Shown here: positions 9,964 to 64,000 of the stretch, in pieces
How the letters are laid out: every line of letters begins with the position of its first letter
Numbering within the stretch: position 1 is the stretch's first letter
Virus record (IMG/VR): IMGVR_UViG_3300028584_001240
Strand: one strand, 5' to 3'
DNA from: a virus
Taxonomy: Duplodnaviria > Heunggongvirae > Uroviricota > Caudoviricetes
Length of the DNA stretch: 64,000 nt
Position numbers and translations under genes: made by a program
Notes under the pieces: generated by a model
Database searches by the model: none
Seen by the model: the letters and a program-made list of their open reading frames with translations, nothing else
What the model was told of the DNA's origin: nothing

Positions 9964-10569
9964 ATGAAAAAAATGTTAAACAAAGAAGCACTACTCCATA
10001 AAATAAAAGAAAAAAGTACAAAGTTTCTAGAAATAAAAAATCCGGGTGAATTAAATTGTACACCAGAAGGAAACGTTATTGATTTTAATAATATATCATA
10101 CATTAGATTACATAAAGGTCTTTTTATCATCAATAAACACACCGCCAAAAGCTTTTTTAACATTGCTTTTGAAGGTGAAGAAGACGAATATTTAGAAAAA
10201 ATTATCGAAATTTTTAATATATACGCTCATTTTGATTACTTTTTGTATACACCTAAAGACGATGGTTTTAATGTTTACAGCAAAGGTTTTGAAGCGAACT
10301 ATATAGAAAGGAAAATTAAAAAAGAACCTGAAATTGAACAAAAAGAAGGCGTATTTTATTCCAACCTTTGTAAAGAAATATCGCTTGGGCCAATGATGGA
10401 ATGTACATTAGGTATGAAAAATACAGCTTATAGTTATAAAGAGTTATATGAAAACGTCATCTATCCACAATTTCAAGAAATGCTGAAAGAAAGCATTGGA
10501 TTAGAAATTACGCACATGAGCCAGTTTGATGACCGGGCTTTTGAACTATTAAAGATGGCAAGAATTTAA
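9964..10569 (+). CDS. hypothetical protein, C-terminal tail family (ends ...RAFELLKMARI)
   Basis: 201 aa. Met at -4 and Ile at -1, as in the big family. Confidence 0.5.
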   Translation: MKKMLNKEALLHKIKEKSTKFLEIKNPGELNCTPEGNVIDFNNISYIRLHKGLFIINKHTAKSFFNIAFEGEEDEYLEKIIEIFNIYAHFDYFLYTPKDDGFNVYSKGFEANYIERKIKKEPEIEQKEGVFYSNLCKEISLGPMMECTLGMKNTAYSYKELYENVIYPQFQEMLKESIGLEITHMSQFDDRAFELLKMARI

Positions 10570-10594
10570 CCACATTGCTGAACAGGAGGTAACC

Positions 10595-10930
10595 ATGTTA
10601 AATGCATTAAGGTATGTGTGGTCATTGTATGATTACTATACAAAGTTTAAACAATCCAGCGATTTCTTCATGCATGATGAATTATTGACGATTACACGTC
10701 TGCGAAATATGAACGGATTGATTGTTGACAGTCGCGGTGAACTTGGATGTTCCTCAATATCCATCAGTTCAAAATATGTAACATTGGACACACCACAAGC
10801 AACACTAGATTTATTTTTCAATAAGTCATGGCTCGAAGTGAAAGCTAAATATCCACGTAGACATTGGTATTATCAAATGGAAAAAAGAATGATTAATTAC
10901 CAACGTTCAAAAAATAAAAATGTAAAATAA
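10595..10930 (+). CDS. hypothetical protein (111 aa)
   Basis: Strong SD: caggaggtaaccATG. Confidence 0.5.
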   Translation: MLNALRYVWSLYDYYTKFKQSSDFFMHDELLTITRLRNMNGLIVDSRGELGCSSISISSKYVTLDTPQATLDLFFNKSWLEVKAKYPRRHWYYQMEKRMINYQRSKNKNVK

Positions 10931-10934
10931 ATAA

Positions 10935-10970
10935 AAAAGGCACCTAAGATAATTAGAATGCCTTTTTTTT
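10935..10970. terminator. hairpin + T8 (aggca...tgcct tttttttt), bidirectional terminator candidate
   Basis: Read directly between convergent genes. Confidence 0.45.
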
Positions 10971-10981
10971 GTAAACAATTT

Positions 10982-11791
10982 TTAAATAGCAGTCATCAAT
11001 AACAAATCTATTTTATCGGCAATATTTTCTTGTGGTATATCTAAAAATTCTTGATAAAATCCATTATGAAGATTACTCACATACATCATCAATATTTCAT
11101 CTGTAAAAACATCAATATCATGATCAGTAAAAAGGGTGCTGGCTTCTATAATATCTTCCAAGGTCACTAAGCCAGCTAAACTTTCTGGAAGTTTATATAC
11201 CTTTTTATCTGATAGGCTAAAATATAATGAAAAGGGTTGAGTATGATTAAAAAAACGGACTGTTGGAAATAAAGCTATCTTTCCATCGCGGGTTATTGAA
11301 AAGTTTCTAATGAATTCATATTGTCCAACATTTCTATAAGACCGACTAACACATGATGTTATACCATATTTATGGCTATCTTTTTCCAACATGTATGTTT
11401 TTGCAAAAGTATAAAATTCATGAGGCTTTATATCACTACTCAATTTCAATAATCTTGAGAAATTGGTGTTTTTTTGAAAAGAATTAAGAGCTTCATTGAT
11501 AAAATTAAAATCTTTTCTTGATGTTTTATGAATTTGAAACATTTGATTGAACTTGTCTAGATAAGAAAGATCTTTGAGACAAATTGAATGGAAAAGAGGT
11601 TGTCCCGGTGAAATACCGAAACTGAAAAATGGTTTATTTATATTAATGGGGTTCTTATGTTTTTTAAACAAAATATGAACTTGAGTGTCCATCATAGGAT
11701 ATTGTTCATATTCAAAAAATGTTGTTTTTGTTGTTTTGGTATTAAATGCCCCAGAAACAGCATTCCGAAAATTTTCCATAATAAGCTCCAA
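10982..11791 (-). CDS. C-terminal tail family protein (269 aa; ends ...DKIDLLLMTAI)
   Basis: ORF table. Tail motif with M at -4 and I at -1. Confidence 0.55.
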   Translation of the reverse strand: MELIMENFRNAVSGAFNTKTTKTTFFEYEQYPMMDTQVHILFKKHKNPININKPFFSFGISPGQPLFHSICLKDLSYLDKFNQMFQIHKTSRKDFNFINEALNSFQKNTNFSRLLKLSSDIKPHEFYTFAKTYMLEKDSHKYGITSCVSRSYRNVGQYEFIRNFSITRDGKIALFPTVRFFNHTQPFSLYFSLSDKKVYKLPESLAGLVTLEDIIEASTLFTDHDIDVFTDEILMMYVSNLHNGFYQEFLDIPQENIADKIDLLLMTAI

Positions 11792-11812: not shown

Positions 11813-12604
11813 TTATATACTATTCATTTCAACCAAGTTCATCATTTCAGCGTAATTAGAACAACTGTCAAAAATACTCTCAACCAGTTTCCTGTCGTTA
11901 AGGAGACTGTCAATATAGTAAAAGAAAATATCGTATGTCCAATTACTATCAATTGAAGTCTTTAAATCATTAATCTCAACACCATTATCGAACAATTGTT
12001 CAAAGGTCAATAAACACCTATCAGCATTGTTTCCACTAAACGTTGAAATATTCGCTGCTTTATTCAGTTCAGGCGATAGCAAAATTGAATAGGTCTTTTG
12101 TTTTAAAGAGATATCCAACACTAAGATTGGGCGAAATTTTCCAGAATTATCTAATACCATTCGCTTGTCATAAGAATAATAGAAGTTATGTCTTTTCGGT
12201 GAGTGATAAAGGTCTATATCTGATAATGTGCATGAATTATAAAACATATGCTCAACTCGCTGGTTAACAGTGACGACTCGATGAATGGATTTTAAATCAA
12301 AATCACCCTTGGTTTTAATCATATGAACAAGGGCATCATTCAAACAAAAAGATGAAAATGCTTTTTTGAGTAGCTTGTTTTCTTCTCGGGTATACATAAT
12401 ATCTGGAATACATGATAAATAGACATCTTCATTATAAAAAACTGAACGCGAAAGAACCTTCCCATGAAAATTTAACAAGGCGACTGGCTCATTGTTCTGA
12501 TGTGTTAATGAAAGTGTTGAACTGTTTAAAAATGTGGCCGAAACAAAATGACCATCAAAGGTTTTAGAAACAGCGTCAAGAAGCGTCTGGTTAATGTTTG
12601 ACAT
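11813..12604 (-). CDS. C-terminal tail family protein (263 aa; ends ...NLVEMNSI)
   Basis: ORF table. Tail motif. Confidence 0.55.
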   Translation of the reverse strand: MSNINQTLLDAVSKTFDGHFVSATFLNSSTLSLTHQNNEPVALLNFHGKVLSRSVFYNEDVYLSCIPDIMYTREENKLLKKAFSSFCLNDALVHMIKTKGDFDLKSIHRVVTVNQRVEHMFYNSCTLSDIDLYHSPKRHNFYYSYDKRMVLDNSGKFRPILVLDISLKQKTYSILLSPELNKAANISTFSGNNADRCLLTFEQLFDNGVEINDLKTSIDSNWTYDIFFYYIDSLLNDRKLVESIFDSCSNYAEMMNLVEMNSI

Positions 12605-12606: not shown

Positions 12607-13521
12607 TTAATACGTCAACATCTCAGTTACTTTCAATCGACCAATCAACTCGGATCTTGGTAAGGTCATCATTAATTTTTTCTCCTTCAATTTTAAGTTT
12701 TCAGCTCTACCAATAATATTGACCACACACTTTATGAATTTAGCATTAAATTTCTCAAATAGCTCATCAATAGAAGCTTCCATATTATCAGAAAACATAG
12801 GAACTGCATACTTAAATTTTAAAGTTGATAAGACAGGTAGGTTAAACAAAAACCCCGGCACGAATGCTCCTTTATCATCTCTCATCAATACAATTTCTAC
12901 TTTGGCCGGAGAAAATGAAAAGCTCGTTTGTTTTCTTGAGTTCTCAGTCTTTGAAAGATAACCATAATAAGATTTGCACAAACGTTGCTCTTTTGTATCT
13001 TTGTAAGTTTTAGTCTTCACAAAAAAATCTTTCAACTGTTGTGGAATAGCACTTTTTTCAAACTTTTCAAAGAATTCAAATTCATTAGTTTCTTTAATAT
13101 AACGATCAATAACCGTTTCCATAATGTAGGATGGAAAATCACGACTAGCCATCAACTGTTCAAATAAGGTGAGAACAACTTTACTTTTATCAATCTTATC
13201 ATTAAAAATTGAATAAACAGCTTGACCATCATACACATTGTTATAAACTCGTAAGTATTTATTATCAAAGGGCTTTGGCCCAGTCTCAAGGATAATTCTG
13301 AATCCATAAGTTTGATAGGGGTCATTAATTTCAATAGGATAAGTTTTAGGCCCATACTTATCAACCAGTATAGCTCTAATTTGTTTTATAAGTGGATCAT
13401 ATTCTTTCATAGCGGCCTCTTGTTTTTCTTTATTATCTTTTGTTGCTTGATTAAAAGTAGTCACTTTGACAGCACCACTGTTGATACTGCTAAGTAAGGC
13501 TGTTAGATCAATATTTTTCAT
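12607..13521 (-). CDS. C-terminal tail family protein (304 aa; ends ...LKVTEMLTY)
   Basis: ORF table. Tail motif. Confidence 0.55.
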   Translation of the reverse strand: MKNIDLTALLSSINSGAVKVTTFNQATKDNKEKQEAAMKEYDPLIKQIRAILVDKYGPKTYPIEINDPYQTYGFRIILETGPKPFDNKYLRVYNNVYDGQAVYSIFNDKIDKSKVVLTLFEQLMASRDFPSYIMETVIDRYIKETNEFEFFEKFEKSAIPQQLKDFFVKTKTYKDTKEQRLCKSYYGYLSKTENSRKQTSFSFSPAKVEIVLMRDDKGAFVPGFLFNLPVLSTLKFKYAVPMFSDNMEASIDELFEKFNAKFIKCVVNIIGRAENLKLKEKKLMMTLPRSELIGRLKVTEMLTY

Positions 13522-13536
13522 TATTAATATCCTATC

Positions 13537-14316
13537 TCAAATATGATGCATTGCAATGATGGAAAGGTGATCTTCAAAAGATTCCTTGTTAAGAGCTTTA
13601 AAGCCTGCTTCATCAATATCAAATAATTTTTTGAAAAGAGTTTGAACAATAGGATCGATTTCATTTTTGACTTTTGTCAAAAAGCCAGCAAGATTGTTCT
13701 GCATGGTGTGAGCACTAGACAAATGAATATCATGATCAATAGAACCAAACTTAATTTTAATATAAGGATACGAAGTAAATTGACCATCACGATATTGAAA
13801 CATCAGTTTAGTGGTCATCATGATCATTGAATTTTGAACTTTGTATAACTTAGCATTCAAAAAATGGTTTGAATAGCTTCTCATCGCATAAAAATAAGAA
13901 TGTGAGCTGTACGATCTAATGAAACCAAACTGTGATTTAAAGAGGTTCTTATCATGAAAATCTGAAGACTTTAATAAACTGTATTTGGTCGTAAAGTCTA
14001 AAAACCCCTTATTAAAATCTTTGATGAATGAATCAGCATCTTTATGCATAAGCATTTGAGATAGCTCATCAAGAAATGTTTCATTGATATCCGTTGAGAT
14101 GTGAATCGTCTTTTTATCTTGTCGATTAACATAGACATAAATAAATTTGTGCTCATTATTGACGCACACAGTAAATTTAATGACATCAGACTGACCCATA
14201 TCAACTTTATGTTTAATATTGGTTCCAATCACATCAAGATTAAATCTTTCTTTCAATAGATGACTAAAATCCTTCTTAATGACCAAAAGGTGATTGACTT
14301 CTTTTTTACTTGTCAT
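13537..14316 (-). CDS. C-terminal tail family protein (259 aa; ends ...LSIIAMHHI)
   Basis: ORF table. Tail motif. Confidence 0.55.
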   Translation of the reverse strand: MTSKKEVNHLLVIKKDFSHLLKERFNLDVIGTNIKHKVDMGQSDVIKFTVCVNNEHKFIYVYVNRQDKKTIHISTDINETFLDELSQMLMHKDADSFIKDFNKGFLDFTTKYSLLKSSDFHDKNLFKSQFGFIRSYSSHSYFYAMRSYSNHFLNAKLYKVQNSMIMMTTKLMFQYRDGQFTSYPYIKIKFGSIDHDIHLSSAHTMQNNLAGFLTKVKNEIDPIVQTLFKKLFDIDEAGFKALNKESFEDHLSIIAMHHI

Positions 14317-15125
14317 ACTTTTAACATCTCCAATACTTTAAAGTCATTAATCGAACCGTTAGCTTCACTGCTAATGCCAGCAACATTAAATTGATTGACA
14401 TAGAAAGTGTATAATTCAGGTGTTAGTTTATTCATGAAATCATTAATATAATCATTAAGTCCAACTAAGGTTGGGTTTTTATTAATAGCTACATTTCTAA
14501 CAATATCAACTGATGAAATAATGCTTATTGTTGTTGTGCTCAAATCCGGGTGCTCAGTATTTAATCTATAATGGTTAGTATCTAACAAATTAACAAACTG
14601 ACCAGAGTGTTCATCAATAAAGAATCGAGTTTTTCCAAATCCACGTAAATTGATACACAGATCAATAATGGGTTTAATTTTAAAATCTTCGGTCACCACA
14701 TAACCTAATTCGGTAAACAACATATTCCATGCATTCGTGTAATAGAACATAGGAGAGAGCGTTATTCTTTTTCCTACTATTTTCGACCTATTGAAAGTAT
14801 CAGCCTCAAAGAAAATAGGGTCTTTAAAAATAATTTTTGAAATCTCATGGTTAAACAAACTATCTGAAATCATTTGACACGTCTTAAAACTATCAAATTG
14901 TGTAAAAATAGAGTTGGCTGTCTCACGGAAATCAGGATCGGTTAATTTGTAGTAAGAAAATTTATGAGTTTCACTGTCATATCCAAAGTTAAGCACTTTA
15001 CTCATTGTCACATTGTTAAAAAGATAAAATGTCTGTTTGTCTTCATGAAAATCAAGAGAATAATCATCACCCAGTATTAAGCTGAATGCTTGTTTAATGC
15101 TATCAATGGTAGTGAATTCATTCAT
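14313..15125 (-). CDS. C-terminal tail family protein (270 aa; ends ...FKVLEMLKV)
   Basis: ORF table. 4-nt overlap with the downstream gene. Confidence 0.55.
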   Translation of the reverse strand: MNEFTTIDSIKQAFSLILGDDYSLDFHEDKQTFYLFNNVTMSKVLNFGYDSETHKFSYYKLTDPDFRETANSIFTQFDSFKTCQMISDSLFNHEISKIIFKDPIFFEADTFNRSKIVGKRITLSPMFYYTNAWNMLFTELGYVVTEDFKIKPIIDLCINLRGFGKTRFFIDEHSGQFVNLLDTNHYRLNTEHPDLSTTTISIISSVDIVRNVAINKNPTLVGLNDYINDFMNKLTPELYTFYVNQFNVAGISSEANGSINDFKVLEMLKV

Positions 15126-15886
15126 TAGATATTTTCCATAGTCATTAGTGTTAGATAACTTTTAATATCATCCTCAGAAAAACAGGTTATATCATCAAGA
15201 CAAAATTTTTCTGAAATAGTTGATGAAGCGTTTTTTAAAACAACAGCGTAAATGTTGCTGCACATTTTATTAACTCTATTCAAAAAGTCTTCGTCATCCT
15301 TTAAATCAAGAGAAATGGAATGAGCCGTAATAACAAATTGGATCATCTTACTAGATTTTAAAACGGAACCATCCAAATAGTAATAAGGTTTACTTTTAAG
15401 ACGTGCGTTCATGAAAGAAAATTCATTAAAATGGCTTTCAAATGAAATTTTACCTTGCAACATTTCTTTATGAATACAATATTTACTTTTTCTTTTTTTA
15501 TCATGGTAAATTTCACCCATAGGCTGAGCATTAAATTTAATATGCACTGAACCTACCTGAAATTCACTAAGAATGGCGTTGATAGAGTCTTTAATAAGAT
15601 GTAGTTGTTCATTTTCTTGTTTAGACATGAAAAACCAATAGAAGTCTCGAATCAGTCCGGGGTTGGCACTGGATTTAATAATAATTTCTTGAGTGTTGTG
15701 TAAATAATCTGCAGAAATAGAGTGCAATTTATTTTTTTCTGTTTTGTAGTAACAGGTAATAATAGATCCTGCTTGATCCGCATTGTCTTCAATAGAAAAA
15801 GAATCTAATTCACGAACTAAAACATCAACAATAAATTTTACAATATTGTTTTTAATAAACGTAGAATTGTCTAATAAAGTTGACAT
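15125..15886 (-). CDS. C-terminal tail family protein (253 aa; ends ...YLTLMTMENI)
   Basis: ORF table. GGAGA SD upstream. 1-nt overlap with the neighbour. Confidence 0.55.
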   Translation of the reverse strand: MSTLLDNSTFIKNNIVKFIVDVLVRELDSFSIEDNADQAGSIITCYYKTEKNKLHSISADYLHNTQEIIIKSSANPGLIRDFYWFFMSKQENEQLHLIKDSINAILSEFQVGSVHIKFNAQPMGEIYHDKKRKSKYCIHKEMLQGKISFESHFNEFSFMNARLKSKPYYYLDGSVLKSSKMIQFVITAHSISLDLKDDEDFLNRVNKMCSNIYAVVLKNASSTISEKFCLDDITCFSEDDIKSYLTLMTMENI

Positions 15887-15937: not shown

Positions 15938-16771
15938 TCAATAAGCAGCCATTTCTGTTACAATGACATAATCAACAAGTTGTTGCATAGAGTATTCGGT
16001 AACTTCACCTAACGATTCATGGTCTTTAAGTCTAAGATTACGTTTAATGATATCATACAATTGGGAGCGAATACAGCGTTCATATTTATAAACTAACAAT
16101 TGAACGTCATCTTCACTAATACCTTTATTAGCATCCACCATAATAGTCAACTTAATATCAGCTAACAATGGGATGTTTAAAACATAAACAGGCAACAATT
16201 CACCTGTATAAGTAGACATATTTAAACTCATGGTACACACTGAATAGGCTGCTTTACTTTTTCTATTGCTAAATCGACGGCGTTGTTCAGCTTTACGACT
16301 ACGAGCTGAATAATAGAACATTGCCAAATGTTTTTTACTCGTTGATTTTCTTCGATGATTATCATCAGAAGTTAATGAATCAATGGATAAATCTTTTGGG
16401 TGATATTCCACAGAGTCAAACTGATTCCATTTTAACCCTGCTTCAAAAAACTTCTGAATAATAGCTTGAAGGTAGTTTTCATCCACAACAGGATCTTTAA
16501 AAAGTGTTGAATAAAGGTTCTTGTAGTCATCAATAGAACCATCCATGCCTACTTTTAAAAAGTTACCATTTTCACACGGTAACACGTAGGCATTAAGGAT
16601 GTTATAAGCACTCGATTTGTAACCTGTCTTTCTATTTTTAAAAATTGAAAAACCATCGTGTCCATAATCAACAGTGTATTGTTCAAAAGGGCGGTCCAAA
16701 CCATCTGACAGCACTGTTTTAGCATGATCTAACAGTGGCTGACAGATTTCTTTTGAATTGAGTTTAGACAC
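15938..16771 (-). CDS. C-terminal tail family protein (277 aa; ends ...VIVTEMAAY), GTG start directly abutting serS stop
   Basis: GTG at RC 16769-16771 with GGAG 8 nt upstream. serS TAA occupies 16772-16774. Confidence 0.55.
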   Translation of the reverse strand: MSKLNSKEICQPLLDHAKTVLSDGLDRPFEQYTVDYGHDGFSIFKNRKTGYKSSAYNILNAYVLPCENGNFLKVGMDGSIDDYKNLYSTLFKDPVVDENYLQAIIQKFFEAGLKWNQFDSVEYHPKDLSIDSLTSDDNHRRKSTSKKHLAMFYYSARSRKAEQRRRFSNRKSKAAYSVCTMSLNMSTYTGELLPVYVLNIPLLADIKLTIMVDANKGISEDDVQLLVYKYERCIRSQLYDIIKRNLRLKDHESLGEVTEYSMQQLVDYVIVTEMAAY

Positions 16772-18052
<1,281 letters not shown>

Positions 18053-18090: not shown

Positions 18091-18855
18091 TCAATAGCGT
18101 TCGATAGCCAAAACTGGATAGTAACTCATAATCTCTTCGTTACTTAATGCATTTACTTGAGTATGCGTTAAATTATATAGACGAATAATTGTACCTAAAA
18201 TTTGTGTCTGATGGAGGTCATTAAATTGAGTGGCAAAAGTATGCATCTGCATTTTAACTAAACTATCCTGTTCACTTTTCTTCTGAAACCAAAAATCCAT
18301 ACCAAATGACATGAAGTGAAATTCATCATTAAGATAAAATTGATTATTCTCAAATATAAATTTAGCTATTTTATAAACCTTAAAAGTCTCAAAAGGTGTT
18401 GTAACTTCGGCATGAATAGTTTTATCCATCATGAGCGTTTTCCATGAACCAAATTTCAATATTCTTTTTGCAAAAGGTAAAACATTTATGTTTGAGATGA
18501 TTTTTAGTTGCTCGCTGTATTCACTTGCAGCCTTCATAAATAATGAAAAAGAATCTGTGCTTTGTTCACTGCAGTGTTTAATAAATTTATTATAAAGTGG
18601 CAAATATTTTTTGTTATCAATATCTAAGGTAATGTTATTTACTACATAATCACCTTTTTTAACATTATTATTGATAGTAAATCGAAAAATAGGCTTAGCT
18701 TTACTCGTATTGACATCTAAGCAACAAATTGTCCTACCACCAGTATACTGACCCAACCCAGTGCGGGTATGGAAAATAACAGAGCCTTTCATATTTTTTT
18801 CAAAGAAAGGTCTTAACTCTGAGATCATTGCTTGACATAATTCATTATCGTTCAT
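18091..18855 (-). CDS. C-terminal tail family protein, subfamily A paralog 1 (254 aa; ends ...SYYPVLAIERY)
   Basis: Shares PKFIFENNxFYL and SYYPVL blocks with the next two genes. Confidence 0.6.
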   Translation of the reverse strand: MNDNELCQAMISELRPFFEKNMKGSVIFHTRTGLGQYTGGRTICCLDVNTSKAKPIFRFTINNNVKKGDYVVNNITLDIDNKKYLPLYNKFIKHCSEQSTDSFSLFMKAASEYSEQLKIISNINVLPFAKRILKFGSWKTLMMDKTIHAEVTTPFETFKVYKIAKFIFENNQFYLNDEFHFMSFGMDFWFQKKSEQDSLVKMQMHTFATQFNDLHQTQILGTIIRLYNLTHTQVNALSNEEIMSYYPVLAIERY

Positions 18856-18873: not shown

Positions 18874-19632
18874 TTAATAACGTTCCATTGACAATACTGG
18901 GTAATAAGACTGGAACTGTTTATCAGTCCAAAGACCAAACTCAGTAAAAGGCACATCATACAGTTCATTAATTTTTGAAGTAATAATTTCATAGTGATCT
19001 TCATAAAATTTATGAGCAAATTCTTTAACTTCAACCTTCATGACATCTACGTCTTCTGTTTTTTGAGCAAACGTATAGTGTTGACCTAGTGAAGTAAAAC
19101 TAAACTTATCATGTAAATAAAATTTATTATTTTCAAAAATAAATTTAGGTGTCTTATGAATGTTGATAACTTCAAAAGGAGTTGTCATAATGGCATGGAC
19201 AGCAAGATCCACTCTAATATAGTCACCATCTGCAATCAACTTTCTTTCCTCAAATGGCAATACATCAATAGCAGTTATTAATTTTAAATGATCAGTCTGT
19301 TTAAGTGTTTCATTCATAAACAAATTAAATGAATTAGAACTGTATTGGCTACACACAGCTATGAATTTATTCAATATGTTTAAATGTTTTTCATCGTGGA
19401 CTTTTATTTCGATAGATTTAAACTTTTGATCATAGATCCTTCTGTCTTTCATAATAATAAAAGATAATAAAAGTTGTCCGGTAGAGGACTGCATATGTAA
19501 AATATCCAAAGAAATACCATTAGGCTTAGTATTATTTAATGAAGCCTTAAACATAACAGGATAATTAAGATGTCGAGCCGCAAACAAGCTTAAAACTGAT
19601 TTCATACTCTCAACCAGTTGTTCTGTTGTCAT
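18874..19632 (-). CDS. C-terminal tail family protein, subfamily A paralog 2 (252 aa; ends ...SYYPVLSMERY)
   Basis: Paralog by eye. Confidence 0.6.
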   Translation of the reverse strand: MTTEQLVESMKSVLSLFAARHLNYPVMFKASLNNTKPNGISLDILHMQSSTGQLLLSFIIMKDRRIYDQKFKSIEIKVHDEKHLNILNKFIAVCSQYSSNSFNLFMNETLKQTDHLKLITAIDVLPFEERKLIADGDYIRVDLAVHAIMTTPFEVINIHKTPKFIFENNKFYLHDKFSFTSLGQHYTFAQKTEDVDVMKVEVKEFAHKFYEDHYEIITSKINELYDVPFTEFGLWTDKQFQSYYPVLSMERY

Positions 19633-20385
19633 TTAACAAACCTCCATCGCTAATACAGGGTAATAAGACATCAATAATTCTGGCGACCAATTAGAAACTT
19701 CATCAACAGGTGTATTATAGAGTTCACTCAATGCAGTAGTTATATAGAGAAAACATTTATTATAGAATAAATCGGCAAACTTTGAAACGTAATCATTAAT
19801 ATATTTTTCATTATTTTCTGTTCTTTTCATGAACTTAAAATTACCAACTTCCGAAGAAAATACAAATTCAGGATTAATATAGAATTTATTTTTTTCAAAG
19901 ATAAATCTAGGTCTTTGTTCTATTTCAATAGTTTCAAAGGCTGTTTCAAGGTTTGCATAAATTTGTGGATCGATAACACCATGCAATTTTGATGAATACT
20001 GAATAGTGCTGGAATCTTGTAGTATATTGACAGCTTTGATAAATTTCAAATGATTGCTTTGTCTAATCATAGCGTCCACAAATAATGAAAATGAATTAAA
20101 CCCATCAACACAATATTCCTTTACAAACAAATTATAGATGCCTAAATATTTTTGGTCACCAATCACTATATTAATTGAATGTCTTTTAGCCTCATTTGTC
20201 GATTCAAGAATAAAACTGAAAATAATGCTTCCTGATGCAGTGAGGACACGAACATCAGGAAAAAGATTATGACTGCCAACATTACCATTAGTCCGTTTCT
20301 GGAAAAAGACAGGTTCGAGCACATTATCTTTAAAAAATGGCTTTATTTTGGCTATAATTGAATCACATAAATCATTTATATTCAT
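19633..20385 (-). CDS. C-terminal tail family protein, subfamily A paralog 3 (250 aa; ends ...SYYPVLAMEVC)
   Basis: Paralog by eye. Abuts the previous gene and overlaps the next by 4 nt. Confidence 0.6.
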   Translation of the reverse strand: MNINDLCDSIIAKIKPFFKDNVLEPVFFQKRTNGNVGSHNLFPDVRVLTASGSIIFSFILESTNEAKRHSINIVIGDQKYLGIYNLFVKEYCVDGFNSFSLFVDAMIRQSNHLKFIKAVNILQDSSTIQYSSKLHGVIDPQIYANLETAFETIEIEQRPRFIFEKNKFYINPEFVFSSEVGNFKFMKRTENNEKYINDYVSKFADLFYNKCFLYITTALSELYNTPVDEVSNWSPELLMSYYPVLAMEVC

Positions 20386-24142: not shown

Positions 24143-24253
24143 GGTGATATAGCTCCAAAAAATGATGTCCCATCATAACATATTGGGTCATTTTGAGCAA
24201 GAAATAAAAAAGGCAACCGTTTTTGGCTGCCTATGGTATTTAAGTGGTTAAAA

Positions 24254-24409: not shown

Positions 24410-24525
24410 ATCTAAATCCTCATTTAATTAAGCTTATGTGTTTGAGCTTTAAATATAGCAATATTTATCTTTATTGTCAATAGCCGAAAATAAACGAATT
24501 AAAGGCTTTAAAATAAGTAAATAAA

Positions 24526-24555
24526 TTGACAGATATCGTCATATTTTGCTATAAT
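24526..24555 (+). promoter_or_regulatory. near-consensus sigma70 promoter (TTGACA, 18 nt spacer, TATAAT) upstream of 24585 gene
   Basis: ttgacagatatcgtcatattttgctataat read directly. SD agaggtg follows at 24570-24576. Confidence 0.6.
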
Positions 24556-28300: not shown

Positions 28301-28302
28301 AT

Positions 28303-52758: not shown

Positions 52759-53618
52759 ATTGTCTCCATCATTAATAAAGCAAGATAACGATCACGCATC
52801 TCAGTATTAGACAAATCAATCTGGTCTTTTTTCAACCCGTAACGTTGCTTAATGATAGGAAGAAGCCTACTGATAAATTGTGCTTCCATGATTTCAGGCA
52901 ATTGGTCTTTATTAATAGGTCGAGACATCGAAATAAGGTCTTCATAAGATCGAGCCGCAAACACTTGTCTAGTAGTATACACTGTATCAGCATAAACATC
53001 CACAATAAAACTGGCCGCATAGTCTTGGTCAAACCAAGTATCTACAATAAATATGGGTTTAAGGTTGTTGTGTTGATCAATATAAAAATGAAGTTGACTT
53101 TTAATCAAAGAAACCTTTATATGGCTGTATCGTTTATTTTTTTTGTAAGCCTGATTAAATTTTAATTGGGCAATGTTACAACGGCAACATACATCATCTT
53201 GGGCATATTTAGATTTAAAAGAAATATAAGCCACAGGATTTGCAGCTACTGTTTCAAAATCATTCTGCACAATAGACAATATGCCAGATGAAGACATATT
53301 TTTAGCAACATCAATATAAGCTTTTAATACATTGTCAACAGTTTCTCTTTTGATGTTAAAGGCTTTGCAGAAAGTGTGTTCAAACTCATTACGATCTTCT
53401 TTTACAAAGTGATCGACTTTAAAGATTGCACGATTTTTATGAATAAAAACATTAAAGTGACTGTCTGTATTAGTGATTTTAAATTCAAACTGTCCAAAAG
53501 TGCCGGGAACACTTCCGCCTTCTGATGGCGTGTTGATAGCTACATGGGAACTGAGAGCTTGATGTATGTGATCAGCAAAAATTTCTTCTGGCCGTAGACT
53601 GTTTGTAATAGATTGCAT
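52755..53618 (-). CDS. C-terminal tail family protein (287 aa; ends ...RYLALLMMETI)
   Basis: ORF table. 4-nt overlap. Confidence 0.55.
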   Translation of the reverse strand: MQSITNSLRPEEIFADHIHQALSSHVAINTPSEGGSVPGTFGQFEFKITNTDSHFNVFIHKNRAIFKVDHFVKEDRNEFEHTFCKAFNIKRETVDNVLKAYIDVAKNMSSSGILSIVQNDFETVAANPVAYISFKSKYAQDDVCCRCNIAQLKFNQAYKKNKRYSHIKVSLIKSQLHFYIDQHNNLKPIFIVDTWFDQDYAASFIVDVYADTVYTTRQVFAARSYEDLISMSRPINKDQLPEIMEAQFISRLLPIIKQRYGLKKDQIDLSNTEMRDRYLALLMMETI

Positions 53619-55043: not shown

Positions 55044-56918
55044 TCAGACTGCAATGTATTTTGCAACAAATTCAGCTTCGGTCAAGATTTCAATATCAAC
55101 ACCTTTCGCTTTCAAGGCTTGGGCGTCAGCAAGTTTACTACCAGCACTTTCACCGTAAACAAGAATTTGTGTTGTCTTGCTTGCTTTGCTTTGGATCTTC
55201 GCACCTTTCGATGTGAAGAACGCTTCAATCTCTTTACGTGAGTAGCTAACCATTGTACCAGTTACCACCACGTTCTTACCAGAGAATGGACTATCATTGT
55301 CAACAACTGCTTGTGAAGACAATTCAAGATTGAACAAAGGACGCAAGGTATTAATCAATTCAAGTTTTTCTTGAATACCGGCTGGAATGAGAACGCTATT
55401 CACTGGGCCGTAACCTTTCATCTTAATCAACTTACCTTCTTCGACTTCATGCAGTGCGTCGATATTGAAGACTTTAAGCAACTTTTTAGAGTCGCCTTTA
55501 CCAAGACTCGAAATACCGAAGGCTGCAAGGAAACGCCAGTCTTCAATTTGACTTGATTTACTGGTTTCAAGAGCGGCGACCAAGTTAGGGCTTTCACCTT
55601 TACCAAAACCAGCGGTCAAGAAATCCTGCTCTTTCATTGCGTAAATCTTTTCCAAGGTGTCGAAACCTGCTTCAACCAACTTAGCGACTGTTTTACCACC
55701 AAAACCATCGTTGTTAGCCAATGTTGCAAAGAAGTGCAACAAGGTCTGGCTAATTTGTTCCGAGCAACCTGAATGGTTAGGGCAGAAAAGGAAGTGACTT
55801 TCCCATTCAAGCACAGTGTTACAGCAAGGGCAGTTCGTTGGAACTTCGTATTCAGCTTGGGTAATCACTTTTTCAATTTTAGGGATTACTTCACCACTAC
55901 GAATGATTTCAATGACGGCACCTACACCCATTTTGTTCGTGCGAACGTTGTTCATGTGGTGAGCGGTTACGTTACTAATCGTTGCACCAGACACAAGAAC
56001 AGGAGCCACAGCAAGAACCGGCGTGATAGTGCCAGTGCGACCTACTTGAAGTTTAACATCAAGCACAGTAGTCTGTGCAGTTTCACCACGTTCTTTAAAT
56101 GCACACTGCCATTTATTGTGATGGTTGTTGTAGCCCATGTATTCTTTGATTTCTGGAACAATGGATTCAATCACGAAACCGTCAATCAAGTAAGGAATAG
56201 CAGCACGCAAATCGTTGTTGATTTGTACAAGGTTAGCAAGAATGTCATCAGCCGTGCCAACATAAGCCTGCAACGTGGTGTAAGGCACAAAATGAATCGC
56301 ACCGTCATCCAAAGCCTTCTGAGTTTCAGGGCGTGTATCTTCCTGAGACAATACGCTGCTCATCATGTTACGTGGATGTGGGAACATCGAAGCAAGGTTC
56401 TCTGCGAAATAAGTCTTGTCAATCACCAACTCGCCACGACCTTCTGCATTTTCTTTACGAATAACACCTTTATCGTAGATGTAAGTAATGTCGTTACCAC
56501 GAATGCCATCACCACGAGTAGATAGTTTTTCTGTTTCATGGCAACCCGCAAAACCATCAAGTTTGCAAGTAACTTTATACATGGATTTTACATGAAGATC
56601 CTGAGCTACGTCTTCAACACGTTTAAACCATTTAGCCAAGGCTTCGGAAGTGTAGAATTTTTCGGTTGACAGCATAGGGGAAGAGTGAGTAATAGCGTTT
56701 TCGCCAACTTCTTCCAATTCAATTTCATCAAACCATGTTGATTCAGGGAATTTAGCACGAAAATCTTCAACAACAGCGTCATAATTTTCATCGGCAATTG
56801 GATCAAGACCAAACAATGCAGTCTTTGGCAACGATTTACGGTAGCAATCGTTATAATCTTCAAGCAGCTCAATGAAAGCAGCTTCGGTTGTTGGGTATTT
56901 GATGTCATTGATATTCAT
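55044..56918 (-). CDS. ligA: NAD-dependent DNA ligase
   Basis: 624 aa. Adenylation motif CKLDGFAG (KxDG), Cys4 zinc finger CPCCNTVLEWESHFLFCPNHSGC, HhH region and C-terminal BRCT domain. Confidence 0.88.
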   Translation of the reverse strand: MNINDIKYPTTEAAFIELLEDYNDCYRKSLPKTALFGLDPIADENYDAVVEDFRAKFPESTWFDEIELEEVGENAITHSSPMLSTEKFYTSEALAKWFKRVEDVAQDLHVKSMYKVTCKLDGFAGCHETEKLSTRGDGIRGNDITYIYDKGVIRKENAEGRGELVIDKTYFAENLASMFPHPRNMMSSVLSQEDTRPETQKALDDGAIHFVPYTTLQAYVGTADDILANLVQINNDLRAAIPYLIDGFVIESIVPEIKEYMGYNNHHNKWQCAFKERGETAQTTVLDVKLQVGRTGTITPVLAVAPVLVSGATISNVTAHHMNNVRTNKMGVGAVIEIIRSGEVIPKIEKVITQAEYEVPTNCPCCNTVLEWESHFLFCPNHSGCSEQISQTLLHFFATLANNDGFGGKTVAKLVEAGFDTLEKIYAMKEQDFLTAGFGKGESPNLVAALETSKSSQIEDWRFLAAFGISSLGKGDSKKLLKVFNIDALHEVEEGKLIKMKGYGPVNSVLIPAGIQEKLELINTLRPLFNLELSSQAVVDNDSPFSGKNVVVTGTMVSYSRKEIEAFFTSKGAKIQSKASKTTQILVYGESAGSKLADAQALKAKGVDIEILTEAEFVAKYIAV

Positions 56919-57003: not shown

Positions 57004-57822
57004 TTAAATTTTCATCATATCGAAAAGTGTATTGATTGATTCGACATCAAAGCTCTCAAAATCAATAGTGGTGCCAGTGAAGGCTTCAAAACGAGCTTTA
57101 TAGTTAATGTTAAACAGCTCACGTTTAATCACATACGTCAACTCCGTTAAGAAGTCATCGAATTTTTCAAATGTCTTGGATGTTTGAAAAAGAACATTTT
57201 CTTTATCTAGGTCATCAAGACTAATGATTTTTACATTGTAATAAAAAACATTATTCAGTTTTCTGAAATTAATAATCAATTCTTGATGATTTTTCTGACC
57301 CATCATTACAGAACTGAACTTGGTTGGTGTATGAAAAGTATGTTGAATGCCTGCAATGTATTCATTAAAAATAATATCATAGGTTAACGACACTGGTATA
57401 GTGCTGTTTGTACGATAATTGCCGTGGTCGTCATAGATTTCAGCGGGCACAGTCATTCGATTAAATCGTTTATCATACCAAAAGCTGGATAGCTTACTGC
57501 TCATCCGTTGTGGGGTCTTAAATCGGCTTTCAAAGCCAGTACCTGATGTGAATAGTCGATAGTCAAACATCACCGTAAACAGATTAGTACAAATTTCAAA
57601 CATCTGTTCTTGACTGAATGGGGCTTCATACTCCATGTTATTAATCAAAGCAGTATATGCCTTATTAAAGCCAACTTGTAAATCAATACCATCTCTCGTC
57701 ACTTTGGGCAAGTTATGAATTACTAAGCCATTATCCACCATTTTTAGGCAGGATTTCATAAAAGGTTTAATCTCGTGATCATCAAAACCAGATTTATAAT
57801 GTTTAGCCATCAGTTCAATCAT
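57004..57822 (-). CDS. C-terminal tail family protein (272 aa; ends ...INTLFDMMKI)
   Basis: ORF table. Confidence 0.5.
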   Translation of the reverse strand: MIELMAKHYKSGFDDHEIKPFMKSCLKMVDNGLVIHNLPKVTRDGIDLQVGFNKAYTALINNMEYEAPFSQEQMFEICTNLFTVMFDYRLFTSGTGFESRFKTPQRMSSKLSSFWYDKRFNRMTVPAEIYDDHGNYRTNSTIPVSLTYDIIFNEYIAGIQHTFHTPTKFSSVMMGQKNHQELIINFRKLNNVFYYNVKIISLDDLDKENVLFQTSKTFEKFDDFLTELTYVIKRELFNINYKARFEAFTGTTIDFESFDVESINTLFDMMKI

Positions 57823-60912: not shown

Positions 60913-61692
60913 TCAAATATAAGACATTCTGATAAGATCAAGCTCTCTTTTATTAAACATCTTATTGGTTCTTAAAAAATGAGTAAAGCTACTACCATAC
61001 AGTTTAGTCACACTTATCTCACATGTTTTAAGAATATCACTCAGTAAAATAGATTCCAGTTCACCTGATTTAAAGACAAAATAATGCACATCATAAATAT
61101 TAACATCGTGTAAAGTGGTGCCATCTTCTTGAAGTATGCTTTTAATGGGGCGTTCAACCACCATAGGCACTGTGCCATTAATACCTTTCTGCAAAGGTCT
61201 GCAGTCTTCCAAGAAATACCAAATTTGGTCGATTTTAAACGTGGTATCATCAATTTCATATGACATGCTTTTTAAATAAAGATCTTTTAACAATCTTTTA
61301 GGTTTTGCAAATTTAATCATCCGTGGCAATCCTGACGGACTAAATGCTATGTTATATGACAAAGAATATTCGCTTCCTTTTTCAAAGGATGCACTAGTTA
61401 TTACAAAATAGGATTGCTCTTTTTTATCAACAACCGCCGAGGCAAGTTCAAGGACACATCCTTTGTTATTACTATATCTATAAATAATTTCATTAACTTC
61501 AAACCCAATATCATTAAAAAATTGATTGAGTTCATCCGTGTCCAAGTCAAACTTCAAGCAATAATTTGAACTTTCAATAATATTCATAACCAGCGGTTTG
61601 TATTCTTCACAGTTTTCTTTATTGATTAGATAATGATCAACATAATGAAATTCAATTCTAGATAAGTAATCTTCTTCAGTAGCTTCTGGCAT
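60913..61692 (-). CDS. C-terminal tail family protein, subfamily E paralog 1 (259 aa; ends ...KRELDLIRMSYI)
   Basis: Shares LQKGINGxxxMxxExP, NIYDVxY and DIL.xC blocks with the next two genes. Confidence 0.6.
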   Translation of the reverse strand: MPEATEEDYLSRIEFHYVDHYLINKENCEEYKPLVMNIIESSNYCLKFDLDTDELNQFFNDIGFEVNEIIYRYSNNKGCVLELASAVVDKKEQSYFVITSASFEKGSEYSLSYNIAFSPSGLPRMIKFAKPKRLLKDLYLKSMSYEIDDTTFKIDQIWYFLEDCRPLQKGINGTVPMVVERPIKSILQEDGTTLHDVNIYDVHYFVFKSGELESILLSDILKTCEISVTKLYGSSFTHFLRTNKMFNKRELDLIRMSYI

Positions 61693-61713
61693 ATTTAACT
61701 CCCTAAATCGTAT

Positions 61714-62496
61714 TTAGATATACATCATCTCAATGATATCCCGCTCTCTTTTAGTAAACATTTTAGACATAGTAAGAAAATCAGTGTAATCAGTGCCATA
61801 CATTCTAGCACAACTAAAATCACACTGTGTTAATATATCAATCAGTCGAACTTCCTTAGATTTACCATGTACAGTATAGTAAACATCATAGATATTTACA
61901 TTGTAAAATGACTGAGTGTTTTCAACAATTCTTTTTAATGGATGTTCAATAATCATTGTTATATAGCCATTAATACCTTTTTGTAGCTTTCTGTTATCGT
62001 TAAAACAATAACCAATTTGGTCGATCTTAAGAGTATCACAGTCTATGATATAATGAATAGATTTAAGGGTAAGTCCTTTCAATATTTTGTTTGCTGATTT
62101 AAATGTTCGAGAAACAGCAACACCTTGTAAATTGTAAGACGTAAAATAACTGTGAACGTAACGATCATTCTTAGTAAACTCAACCCATTGCAAGACATAG
62201 CGGTCTTGTACAACCTCACCCTCAATGACAGCAGTTAAATCAATCTCACATCCTTGGTTGTCATTGAATTTCAACGTATTTTCTTCAGATAAAAATCCAG
62301 ATAATGAGAGAAATTCATTCAATTGTGCTCGTTTTAAATCAAATTTTATGATGTAAGAATAATCTTTCAACATCTCAATGAGATTGTCTTTGTATTCATG
62401 CATATTATTTTCGTTAATAATATGTGTCTCCAAATAACGATATTCAATTTTGGCTTCTAACTTGGTAGGTTTTAGTGTATTCATAACAATCGTCAC
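61714..62496 (-). CDS. C-terminal tail family protein, subfamily E paralog 2 (260 aa; ends ...KRERDIIEMMYI)
   Basis: Paralog by eye. Confidence 0.6.
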   Translation of the reverse strand: MTIVMNTLKPTKLEAKIEYRYLETHIINENNMHEYKDNLIEMLKDYSYIIKFDLKRAQLNEFLSLSGFLSEENTLKFNDNQGCEIDLTAVIEGEVVQDRYVLQWVEFTKNDRYVHSYFTSYNLQGVAVSRTFKSANKILKGLTLKSIHYIIDCDTLKIDQIGYCFNDNRKLQKGINGYITMIIEHPLKRIVENTQSFYNVNIYDVYYTVHGKSKEVRLIDILTQCDFSCARMYGTDYTDFLTMSKMFTKRERDIIEMMYI

Positions 62497-62576
62497 TCAA
62501 TAATTCTTTGTATATTATACTATTTTACTTAATAAATCAATTGAAATGTTGATTTTCTTTTTTAATTTGTTATCCT

Positions 62577-63341
62577 ATGCCTAAGAAAAGGATACTGACC
62601 ATGAATATGAAAAAAGTTAAATTAGCAGACGTATTTGAAAAGTATGGCTCTCATTATATGGTGAAATATCATGCCAGTATAGAAAATGGTATTATTTTTG
62701 AAATTGAAAAAAAATTTGGACATTCTAGAGCTAAAAATACATTTTCGACGGAATATAATATTTTTACAACTTTTAATCCACTACTTGACGAAGATTACAA
62801 AAATCTAGTTGAATATCACAGTGAAGAAATCGCTCAACTAAATAAAGGTTCTTTCTTATCAACACTCATTAATAAAGATAAAAAAGAAAAAATTAAATAC
62901 CATCAAAACAGACTAGAAGCCTTAAATGAAGTGTATGCCACCAGCGAAAAAGATAGATATATCACCAATGAGAATGATGTTGTGGTTCTCTATACTTCTG
63001 AGATTAATGTAGGTGATCATTTGCATATTGTTGATTTAAGAAATAAAGAAGAAATTAACCTTGAAACAGTTTATGTAGATGAATTGGTTCCTTTTTTTGA
63101 TGATGATAAAAACATACGATTAAAAATAAACATAAGGGCTTTTAATGTTGATAAAGTTGAATTAGACAATATCAACTTCGTTGATAACTATTGTTCTCCA
63201 ATAACTGATTATCATGTATTTAATGATCGTGAAAAAGCTTATGATTTTTCAATAGAAGAACTCATGAAAAACGAATACAATGAAAACATAAAAATGAGAT
63301 TAAAGCTTGCCAAAAAGATAGACAATTTATTTGGATATTAG
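62577..63341 (+). CDS. hypothetical protein (254 aa)
   Basis: ORF table. No tail motif. Confidence 0.45.
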   Translation: MPKKRILTMNMKKVKLADVFEKYGSHYMVKYHASIENGIIFEIEKKFGHSRAKNTFSTEYNIFTTFNPLLDEDYKNLVEYHSEEIAQLNKGSFLSTLINKDKKEKIKYHQNRLEALNEVYATSEKDRYITNENDVVVLYTSEINVGDHLHIVDLRNKEEINLETVYVDELVPFFDDDKNIRLKINIRAFNVDKVELDNINFVDNYCSPITDYHVFNDREKAYDFSIEELMKNEYNENIKMRLKLAKKIDNLFGY

Positions 63342-64000
63342 ATATAAGTCATTTCGATGACTTTCAGTTCATCCTCATCAAAAACATTCTCAATATTCAT
63401 GAAGTGTTCCATATTATTGCCAATCAACCTATCAAAGCTAAAACCACATGTCTGAATAATATCAGATAAGGTGAAAGATCGAATACGATCTGTATCAGAA
63501 GTAATAATATAGACAATATCAAATATGGAGACATTGTTGAATAACTGATCATCAATAGTAATACTTAATAATGGTTCTTCTTCAATGCGATGAATATTAT
63601 AGTCAAGCTTATGTGCAAATGTTTTAAGCGAGTTTGAAGTATGTAATTCAATATGATTTAAATCGAAAAGATCGCATGAATGATGAATGCTTATGATATC
63701 ATACGTTTCTTTATCGAGTTTTATGACATAGTTAAAATCTACTGAGTATGTGCCCTTAGAATACTGTTCATATTGACTCTTGTAACTGATGTCAATTCTA
63801 TACATATGCTCAAATTCAAAAGAAATTCTTTTAACATTATCAGGGTAGTTAAGTGTTGATAAATAATAACCCTGTTTATGTTTAGGGGATGTACGGATAG
63901 ATAGAGTTAAGTGATAACCTGAACTATTCTTATAAATAGATCTTTCTTGTCGTTTAAAACCTAGCTTATTAAGAAATGAATCAATCTCGCCAACTGGCAA
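63338..64000 (-). CDS. C-terminal tail family protein, subfamily E paralog 3, 5' end outside window (ends ...DELKVIEMTYI)
   Basis: The ORF runs to the window edge. 4-nt overlap with the convergent gene. Confidence 0.55.
   Translation of the reverse strand: MPVGEIDSFLNKLGFKRQERSIYKNSSGYHLTLSIRTSPKHKQGYYLSTLNYPDNVKRISFEFEHMYRIDISYKSQYEQYSKGTYSVDFNYVIKLDKETYDIISIHHSCDLFDLNHIELHTSNSLKTFAHKLDYNIHRIEEEPLLSITIDDQLFNNVSIFDIVYIITSDTDRIRSFTLSDIIQTCGFSFDRLIGNNMEHFMNIENVFDEDELKVIEMTYI

Follow-up and report, generated by a model that had tools for sequence, protein, structure and literature searches.

A C-terminal module shared by 37 proteins of a very large phage-like genome: a candidate docking handle on mostly unrelated bodies

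Analysis of a 64,000-nucleotide stretch of viral DNA (Caudoviricetes; IMG/VR record IMGVR_UViG_3300028584_001240; hereafter the window) showed that 37 of its predicted proteins end in one shared C-terminal module, here called the tail, on bodies that mostly have no detectable relationship to one another. The tail is probably a docking handle for a common partner. The window was represented by 79 non-nested open reading frames (ORFs) with a minimum of 80 amino acids (aa). Methionine was present at the fourth position from the chain end (-4) in 36 of the 79 proteins, 34 of which also had a hydrophobic last residue (I, V, Y, L, F or C), and the terminal residue was isoleucine in 26 overall. With an internal methionine frequency of 2.6%, the binomial probability of the excess at -4 is ~8e-36. 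The original prediction for this DNA had proposed a tail common to dozens of ORFs and beyond chance, and the counts bear this out; every tail that it quoted was found in place. Out-of-frame shadow ORFs from the same DNA carried Met(-4) in 11 of 398 cases (2.8%), five of them with a hydrophobic end, and ORFs from other phage and bacterial loci did so in 23 of 1,514 (1.5%), with a hydrophobic end in eight (0.5%). Two other AT-rich huge phages (GC 0.29-0.31), each sampled over 50 kb, gave 0 of 59 and 1 of 66. The shadow ORFs and these two phages rule out AT-rich composition as the cause, and the control rates of 1.5-2.8% uphold the earlier view that the tail is not due to chance.

A position-specific scoring matrix (PSSM) of 11 residues was applied in leave-one-out mode with a cut-off of 8 bits (the bit scores of the members in Table 1 refer to it). 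Scores of at least 8 bits were obtained at 25 of the 79 C-termini versus 6 of 18,233 internal windows, which makes the motif about 1,000-fold commoner at true C-termini. Restriction to protein ends, the check set by the original prediction, was thus evident. The best internal match (RELLLLKMYNI+GENM) lies just four residues from the end of the 7876-8574 product. The 37 members comprise the strict ones, this extended protein and the Met-to-Ile variant 18091-18855. The product of 42737-43831 has Met(-4) by chance (-10.5 bits) and was excluded. The family was said to run from 9964 to the window end; members are indeed present from 9964 on, but the first lies upstream, at 7876-8574, and further members follow beyond position 64000 (L105/L106). 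A tail-like segment (HYIDVLEMMEH, residues 208-218 of 257, 9.4 bits) was also observed inside the product of 40493-41266 (+), about 40 residues before its end; this may have arisen by chance, or the protein may once have been a member and have gained an extension at its C-terminus.

Synonymous codon variation was seen around the motif, stop codons of all three kinds occur, and the DNA after the tail genes is variously an overlapping start codon, a spacer or a terminator. Because of the synonymous variation and the differing downstream DNA, selection acts at the protein level; a DNA-level cause (promoter, ribosome-binding site or terminator) was rejected on the same grounds, together with the use of three stop codons. 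A nascent-chain effect, in which the last ~20 residues act in the ribosome exit tunnel to stall termination or to couple the next gene, would suit the exact register to the stop codon, the conservation back over ~22 residues (roughly the tunnel length) and the many genes that overlap the following start codon. The three different stop codons do not fit it, nor do the helix cap and heptad-like features, which are those of a folded element with a predicted helix. Because several tail genes are the last of their operon, with terminators behind them, we consider this the least probable of the explanations weighed here.

When 36 tails were aligned from the right, they showed a common register back to about -22. 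The upstream columns are acidic at -22, hydrophobic at -21/-20, Ser at -17, Glu at -15, Asp at -14 and hydrophobic at -13; the downstream columns are Tyr/Glu at -10, hydrophobic at -9, Leu/Val/Ile at -7 (35/36), hydrophobic at -6 and Glu at -5, followed by Met at -4 (35/36) and Ile, Tyr or Val at -1. Alignment of the last 32 residues added an aromatic residue and Gly/Asn at about -27 to -29, the end of a preceding helix. The module of ~22-32 residues consists of this helix end (hydrophobic-Y/F-G/N), a short acidic loop, an S/T-x-x-E cap and a terminal helix of 12-16 residues that stops exactly at the C-terminus. The information content was 4.85 bits at -4, 2.34 at -1 and 2.30 at -7, with all other positions at or below 1.4. 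By helix geometry, -7, -4 and -1 (i/i+3/i+6) would form one stripe beside the free carboxylate, and the variable hydrophobic positions -13, -10, -9 and -6 would lie on another face. As the register is shared over ~22-32 residues, the alignment indicates a single, homologous origin of the module rather than a convergent heptapeptide.

The original prediction had pictured a short, amphipathic C-terminal helix with an acidic patch upstream. The short helix was reproduced in both AlphaFold models, ending at residue -2 in each and starting at -13 in one and at -12 in the other. The amphipathic picture is retained only in part, as a helix is predicted but the conserved -7/-4/-1 stripe lies off the variable hydrophobic face. 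The acidic patch is present but modest (58% at -22, 39% at -15 and 50% at -5), and the proteins as a whole are mildly acidic. The last 7-10 residues are conserved, as had been described, but the fixed register reaches further, to about -22 to -30.

The tail proteins are 186-304 aa long and are encoded in tandem arrays. BLASTP of the bodies gave six small clusters and many singletons, and an iterative hidden Markov model (HMM) search across the window and five related loci, with the last 14 residues removed, gave 7 small clusters and 19 singletons; on these comparisons the bodies represent about 26 sequence families. The 7 small clusters show that tandem duplication clearly contributed to the arrays. 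When ortholog profiles without the last 30 residues were aligned with hhalign, two weak collinear links were found (29573/30276, E 3e-4; 12607/15938, E 4e-4), and the two best-sampled families had zero profile similarity between their bodies. A single merged body family was rejected, since all-vs-all phmmer, the iterative HMM search and hhalign yielded only small clusters. AlphaFold model 1 (22759-23526) comprised two alpha+beta sandwiches followed by a terminal helix at residues 243-254, and model 2 (60913-61692) a long beta-meander with short helices and a terminal helix at 248-258. In both, large antiparallel sheets occupied the second half and the terminal helix was separate, after a coil, with a confidence of 72-79 in the tail and 85-96 in the core. 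The earlier description of the bodies as unrelated was therefore supported, as none merged by profile and the two modelled bodies differ in architecture.

No meaningful match was found for the 37 members in Pfam, PHROGs, NCBIfam or PADLOC, none for the tail profile in the Protein Data Bank (PDB), and nothing relevant in a literature search for a described tail motif. No signal-peptide-like or transmembrane-like segment was seen in any tail protein, and no known family or signal matched, in agreement with the original prediction on both the lack of N-terminal signal peptides and the lack of a described sorting signal. The tail proteins are predicted to be soluble.

Four syntenic relatives (50-90% identity per gene) contain a separate ortholog for nearly each paralog; the tail genes are therefore old and individually retained. 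The last 10 residues were more conserved (0.72-1.0) than the body (0.56-0.79) in 13 of 13 ortholog groups with at least four sequences, and non-tail control proteins showed no consistent excess of end over body conservation. Among orthologs, residues -4 and -1 do not vary, in contrast to the drifting -2 and -3, and the spacing between Met and the chain end is the same in paralogs and orthologs. A search of 1.84 billion representative proteins with the profile of one family returned 12 clusters, whose full-length members all end in the tail, including those with barely recognisable bodies; no full-length tail-less homologue of that body occurred among these 12 clusters worldwide. The tail system is also kept where core enzymes are only 69-74% identical: two regions of a 437-kb relative were scored, and in each the strict tail is borne by 7 of 23 ORFs. 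A scan of IMG/VR with the 60913 family gave no relatives. Over whole databases the tail profile is too weak for billions of sequences, held-out members scoring just 8-18 bits and decoys up to 7.5.

Because the invariant Met and Ile and the exact chain end are kept across families with undetectably related bodies, we infer a constraint from an intermolecular partner common to all members, with the bodies as target-binding modules. That the tail module is the contact surface for such a partner is, in this general form, probable. A narrower version, counted within it like the cargo-loading and degron versions treated below, is an adaptor-to-hub docking tail with one shared receptor, which we put forward tentatively, at somewhat less than an even chance. 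The variable body would perform a family-specific task, probably binding different targets, and the constant tail would plug its Leu/Met/Ile stripe and terminal carboxylate into a putative receptor encoded by phage or host. This version is favoured because the arrays stand behind sigma-70-like promoters (with a SerRS operon and a polymerase-like neighbour), because no structural gene was recognised nearby, and because the alpha+beta-sandwich body, as modelled, resembles small protein-binding modules. The tail might instead be a linear C-terminal sorting signal that uses one Leu/Met/Ile-carboxylate handle to send dozens, possibly hundreds, of structurally unrelated proteins to a processing machine, or to a particle or compartment built by the phage. 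This is conceivable but rather doubtful, and if true it would be the first signal-peptide-like targeting code in a phage.

Several observations weigh against a common partner. The analysis turned up no receptor. The difference in fold rests on two modelled bodies compared without superposition, and the coil before the helix is short (~6-13 residues) and gives no long flexible tether. Some tails of the 437-kb relative are degenerate (Met to Ile, or one or two extra residues), and the terminal constraint thus appears strong but not absolute. The tandem arrays, the similar size of the proteins and the 7 small paralog clusters could also reflect common descent with extreme divergence of the bodies, the tail being a structural or oligomerisation element. 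On this explanation the members are one hyper-diverged paralog family, derived from a single gene by tandem duplication, that has retained a C-terminal helix-loop-helix as its essential structural or oligomeric part, for instance a homo- or hetero-oligomerisation bundle, with no external receptor. It would account for the single origin indicated by the register, the mostly collinear best links between bodies and the large sheets in the second half of both models. It does not account for the absence of profile similarity between the best-sampled two families or for an invariant stripe on a face other than that of the variable hydrophobic positions. Packing of the helix on its own body is hard to reconcile with the data because packed residues would co-vary with that body, rather than hold an invariant Met, an invariant Ile and an exact chain end. 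We therefore regard a hyper-diverged family without an external receptor as unlikely.

Two sets of family-less proteins can be named as receptor candidates for the docking tail. The genes at 5898-7802 (-) and 24585-26729 (+) encode paralogs of 634 and 714 aa, whose C-terminal domain has an invariant Trp-Cys and a nearly invariant His (…GSSSWCI…AAH.KND…). Weak matches to the 714-aa protein, which like its orthologs ends in …IGF, came solely from two huge phages already published, with genomes of 635 and 642 kb. By their conserved residues these paralogs are possibly enzymes, and one receptor candidate. The gene at 28333-28746 (-), which closes a tail-gene array, encodes a 137-aa protein that is 88-95% identical in four of the five relatives compared and far better conserved than its neighbours; it is another candidate.

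The motif and all 37 proteins are undescribed so far, whereas a shared terminal docking or targeting element as such is of a familiar kind: cells, and some protein shells, sort what they contain by means of one terminal label placed on many unrelated proteins. We know of no comparable code for the proteins that a phage makes within the cell it infects. Three residues on one helix face plus the chain end define the label sharply, and it marks nearly half of the genes in the 64-kb region. A docking or sorting role would partly explain the gigantism of the genome, through expansion of proteins with a variable body and a constant handle. If the tail is merely a retained oligomerisation helix, it still offers a clean case in which bodies have diverged to an extreme while a C-terminal element has stayed fixed.

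The tail could also serve in cargo loading, docking proteins inside a procapsid, shell or compartment, either for packaging and perhaps injection or to concentrate them there. Loading peptides usually have this anatomy, with a helix placed after a loop at the extreme C-terminus, and a very large genome makes a large capsid or internal compartment plausible. Giant phages package many proteins, some from gene clusters (phiKZ, PMC13282480). The largest array is closed by an S49 peptidase gene matching the PHROG 'head maturation protease' (phrog_53, E 5e-32). No capsid, portal, terminase, encapsulin or chimallin gene was recognised within the window, however, and the tail genes share their sigma-70-like promoters, and thus their transcripts, with genes for replication and translation. 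The tail lacks a conserved protease cleavage site in front of it, the S/T-x-x-E being a helix cap, and in being mildly acidic the proteins differ from internal head proteins that associate with DNA. No similarity to solved capsid proteins was seen for the 634-aa product encoded downstream of the peptidase, and this product has the enzyme-like conserved Cys and His noted above. A packaging signal is possible, but cargo loading as a whole seems improbable to us.

A protease-scaffold-capsid trio made up of the S49 peptidase, the 232-aa product and the 634-aa product was considered and rejected, as the 634-aa family had no Pfam, PHROG or PDB match and has a conserved C-terminal Cys/His. The peptidase may or may not be a true head maturation protease; it also has a weak NfeD-like match and shares its region with a Band-7/SPFH protein. 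Prokaryotic NfeD-type proteases and stomatins are functional partners.

The peptidase bears on a further explanation, a degron or timer by which host ClpXP, Lon, FtsH or Prc, or the phage S49 peptidase, would remove a class of early proteins together. Recognition depending on the C-terminus, a hydrophobic last residue, the adjacent gene for a ClpP-fold S49 peptidase and promoters resembling those of early genes are consistent with it. Compared by eye, however, the tail is unlike ssrA (…LAA), MuA-type (…RRKKAI) and other known C-terminal degrons, a helix that is capped and folded and holds an invariant Met inside would be unusual, and a conserved module of ~30 residues exceeds what a degron needs. 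We consider this very unlikely.

The window has a GC content of 0.29-0.37 and a coding fraction of 90%. Pfam matches were restricted to a small minority of its proteins, and nearly all remaining genes are family-less; the recognisable ones include a NUDIX protein, PNKP and R2K in addition to those in Table 1. Three aminoacyl-tRNA synthetase genes and two tRNA genes were observed within 45 kb, surrounded by ORFans. The closest GTDB match of SerRS was 54% identical (185,579 species genomes), and an exact-sequence look-up of the SerRS protein gave no record. A 437-kb contig filed as viral in IMG/VR has SerRS and ligase at 74% and 69% identity in syntenic surroundings. Megablast of 24 kb against the INPHARED phages gave no match. 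Proteins identical to those of the window (P0008, P0046) are encoded on a 1,851,360-bp Joint Genome Institute (JGI) contig, and diverged relatives are found on contigs of 1,843,594, 1,917,244 and 1,859,102 bp and on fragments of 437-773 kb. The portion of the ~1.85-Mb genome read was ~100 kb. The largest phage genome found in our literature search is 841 kb (bioRxiv 10.1101/2025.01.14.633092), and a search for phages above 1 Mb returned nothing relevant; the 1.85-1.92 Mb contigs are more than twice that size.

Shine-Dalgarno-like sequences, overlapping stop and start codons and hairpin terminators are present in the window. The best sigma-70-type promoters (TTGACA-17/18-TGnTATAAT) fell in the 10% non-coding DNA at 20 of 27 sites, typically 23-38 nucleotides upstream of a start codon. 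Tail-gene arrays follow such promoters together with polymerase, ligase and tRNA-synthetase genes, some forming one operon with SerRS or directly following the polymerase-like gene. On account of the SerRS distance, the viral 437-kb relative, the huge-phage matches, the sigma-70-type promoters and the Shine-Dalgarno-like sites, the source looks like a very large phage-like genome with a bacterial host. The kind of receptor to be expected depends on whether the source is strictly a virus, a cell or a megaplasmid.

Were it cellular, the tail could be a secretion signal, for example of a Dot/Icm-like type IV effector repertoire in an AT-rich bacterium of ~1.9 Mb. Contigs of ~1.85-1.92 Mb do bear these genes, ORFan paralogs are numerous, and Dot/Icm substrates are known with acidic C-terminal signals and a hydrophobic residue near -3/-4. 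Those signals have no invariant residue, however, and the sparse Pfam matches, the remote SerRS and the viral filing of the 437-kb relative do not suit a bacterium. The window also has a phage-typical set: an S49 'head maturation protease', PNKP, R2K, an NAD ligase, tRNAs and several synthetases in 45 kb. Because the gene content is huge-phage-like rather than cellular, a cellular secretion signal is highly improbable.

Further features of the window are listed with the members in Table 1. The divergent gap at 24143-24584 holds a back-to-back promoter pair. Four tandem paralogs of 80-101 aa lie at 576-1664 (-), with Cys-rich N-termini (M..CC..C) and ends of the form C-T-C-x-C-H-…-H; these mini-proteins look like metal-binding proteins and belong to no assigned family. 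Three tandem paralogs of ~145 aa at 26877-28300 (+) have transmembrane-like segments and are 65-94% conserved in three close relatives.

Table 1. Tail proteins and other features of the window. Positions refer to the window except in the last row, where they refer to L104.
Positions	Strand	Product	C-terminal end	Score (bits)	Remark
7876-8574	-	232 aa	…KRELLLLKMYNI-GENM	16.1	4-residue extension
9964-10569	+	201 aa	…AFELLKMARI	14.3	
10982-11779	-	265 aa	…KIDLLLMTAI	10.2	
11813-12604	-	263 aa	…MMNLVEMNSI	4.4	
12607-13521	-	304 aa	…RLKVTEMLTY	7.3	body related to 15938
13537-14316	-	259 aa	…HLSIIAMHHI	13.8	
14313-15125	-	270 aa	…DFKVLEMLKV	8.7	
15125-15886	-	253 aa	…YLTLMTMENI	6.2	
15938-16771	-	277 aa from GTG, 202 aa from first ATG	…YVIVTEMAAY	11.1	
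18091-18855	-	254 aa	…YYPVLAIERY	10.5	Ile at -4 (Met in 2/3 orthologs)
18874-19632	-	252 aa	…YYPVLSMERY	14.0	
19633-20385	-	250 aa	…YYPVLAMEVC	9.6	
20382-21119	-	245 aa	…YVQLLEMHKI	20.7	
21143-21952	-	269 aa	…YIDVIDMSKI	19.4	
22006-22749	-	247 aa	…AINVYKMIKI	6.6	
22759-23526	-	255 aa	…QIQLLEMLTI	14.0	AlphaFold model 1
23528-24142	-	204 aa	…HVSLCDMIEV	3.4	first gene after sigma-70-like promoter 24480-24452
28800-29573	-	257 aa	…YISLAEMSLI	9.5	
29573-30274	-	233 aa	…YMTLIAMDTI	15.2	body weakly related to 30276
30276-31013	-	245 aa	…YLTVLSMEKI	16.7	
34601-35494	+	297 aa	…FLDLTDMATI	11.3	
37256-38095	-	279 aa	…VLKLNDMISV	4.2	
39337-39999	-	220 aa	…LCLLFEMSTI	7.0	followed by terminator-like hairpin
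43886-44614	+	242 aa	…YFKVKEMTYI	17.3	directly downstream of DNA-polymerase-like gene
44611-45405	+	264 aa	…YIKVKEMMHI	19.5	
47371-47991	-	206 aa	…EKKAVIMFYQ	-3.4	atypical, Gln at -1; weakest member
48001-48669	-	222 aa	…EKQIVKMYYY	11.6	
48674-49375	-	233 aa	…EQELIKMVYY	5.8	
49411-50142	-	243 aa	…LKELVKMTYY	13.0	
50929-51489	-	186 aa	…EREVIRMICI	10.9	
51556-52122	-	188 aa	…EISLLEMIHI	19.6	
52138-52758	-	206 aa	…EYKVFLMYVF	4.4	
52755-53618	-	287 aa	…YLALLMMETI	12.8	
57004-57822	-	272 aa	…INTLFDMMKI	7.6	
60913-61692	-	259 aa	…ELDLIRMSYI	19.7	AlphaFold model 2
61714-62484	-	256 aa	…ERDIIEMMYI	18.4	100% identical to P0008 (1,851,360-bp JGI contig)
63338-64000	-	N-terminus cut by window end (288-289 aa in L105)	…ELKVIEMTYI	22.0	
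2134-3393		TyrRS			
8628-9524	-	S49 ClpP-fold peptidase			phrog_53
16772-18043		SerRS			inside tail-gene operon
31533-32441	-	Band-7/SPFH protein			
38149-38349		tRNA-Lys and tRNA-Pro			
42737-43831		DNA-polymerase-like protein			phrog_24943
46149-47327		third class II tRNA synthetase			
55044-56918		divergent NAD-dependent DNA ligase			
2074-2103	-	promoter example			
9555-9583	-	promoter example			
24452-24480	-	promoter example			
24526-24555	+	promoter example			
40397-40425	-	promoter example			
12868-13770, 27242-29392, 35149-36595, 41541-42947, 49199-49974		examples of the L104 motif			see text

The tail was compared with known terminal elements. Curated protein families gave no significant profile match to body or tail, and the defining sequence or context features of the systems to which the tail can be likened were looked for and not found in it. 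A relationship to the helix of sigma-70 region 4 or LuxR was suggested by …LTKRERDIIEMMYI, which resembles region 4.1, and was rejected, as no Sigma70_r4 or GerE match was obtained with Pfam E values up to 1 or in a Pfam scan covering all 37 members; the tail proteins end where the second helix of the sigma/LuxR type would begin. A PDZ-binding end (class I S/T-x-hydrophobic, class II hydrophobic-x-hydrophobic) was discarded because its key position (-3) is variable here (E6, I5, T4 and S4 of 36) and the conserved residue is at -4. The HbYX motif for docking on proteasomes or proteases (hydrophobic-Tyr-any) has its Tyr at -2, which is present in only 8 of 36 tails, namely that of the 43886 product and others from the arrays at 47-52 kb and at 60-64 kb. 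The sliding-clamp motif Q-L-[S/D]-L-F has no counterpart, as there is no conserved Gln and the equivalent of the second Leu is mostly Glu, Asp or Lys. The ClpX degrons end in …LAA-COOH or …RRKKAI, and the tails in …M-x-x-I/V/Y instead. The adaptor SspB is similar in plan, with a target-binding body, a linker and a C-terminal ClpX-binding (XB) peptide, but the XB sequence (…LRVVK) is unrelated and occurs on a single protein, and the linker of the tail proteins is short.

The Dot/Icm E-block is likewise a C-terminal element of ~20-35 residues, acidic upstream and hydrophobic near -3/-4, found on hundreds of unrelated effectors. It is compositional (E-block, small polar residues), without an invariant residue or register, whereas the tail is fixed, with Met(-4) in 35/36 and Ile, Val or Tyr at -1; the E-block also needs a cellular secretion system, and the ~100 kb read of the genome bearing the tail looks viral. 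Peptides that target cargo to encapsulins and microcompartments resemble the tail as short terminal peptides or helices behind a linker that dock unrelated cargo on a shell. The family 1 encapsulin consensus is rich in Gly, Ser and Leu (…GSLxIGSLK/R), while the tail has no Gly/Ser-Leu repeat, and such peptides mark few cargo proteins per system, compared with dozens here. No Pfam or PHROG match to an HK97-fold encapsulin shell gene was found among the ~40 non-tail window proteins scanned.

In P22 gp8, 80-alpha gp46, SaPI1 CpmB and the herpesvirus scaffold and protease, a C-terminal helix reaches the same procapsid site. As in the tail proteins, a helix or helix-loop-helix at the extreme C-terminus is common to several virus proteins. 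Those helices are basic or of another hydrophobic type and occur on 2-3 proteins, compared with 37 here; the only link to head maturation in the window is the S49 peptidase, no capsid gene having been identified. T4 capsid targeting and the phiKZ inner body are alike in that several proteins are directed into the head. The T4 targeting sequence is formed by the N-terminal ~10 residues and is cut by the prohead protease at L/I-x-E, whereas the tail is C-terminal, and the N-termini of the tail proteins share no feature. The phiKZ inner-body proteins are packaged and their genes clustered, with no shared C-terminal motif described (PMC13282480). Nucleus-forming jumbo phages are reported to have no conserved import signal sequence and to import proteins via a recognition surface (PMC11087766).

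A motif of its own was observed at the C-termini of ~15 small proteins in a piece of a 635-kb huge phage (L104; LR745206.1, 570000-619999). It reads R-[D/E]-x-K-L-x-x-L-G-I, is sometimes trailed by a few residues, and no Pfam matches were found among its carriers. Common C-terminal helices on many small proteins may thus be a wider habit of huge phages.

The poxvirus ankyrin/PRANC proteins, in which a constant C-terminal module binds the hub Skp1 and a variable part binds targets, offer a parallel to the docking handle. Both are found in large viruses, as tandem multigene families with a constant, short, C-terminal helical module. To our knowledge bacteria have no SCF ligase. The poxvirus bodies are ankyrin repeats, whereas those of the tail proteins are non-repeat and belong to many unrelated families. 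With no Pfam match to PRANC or F-box in the 37 members, the resemblance is one of logic alone.

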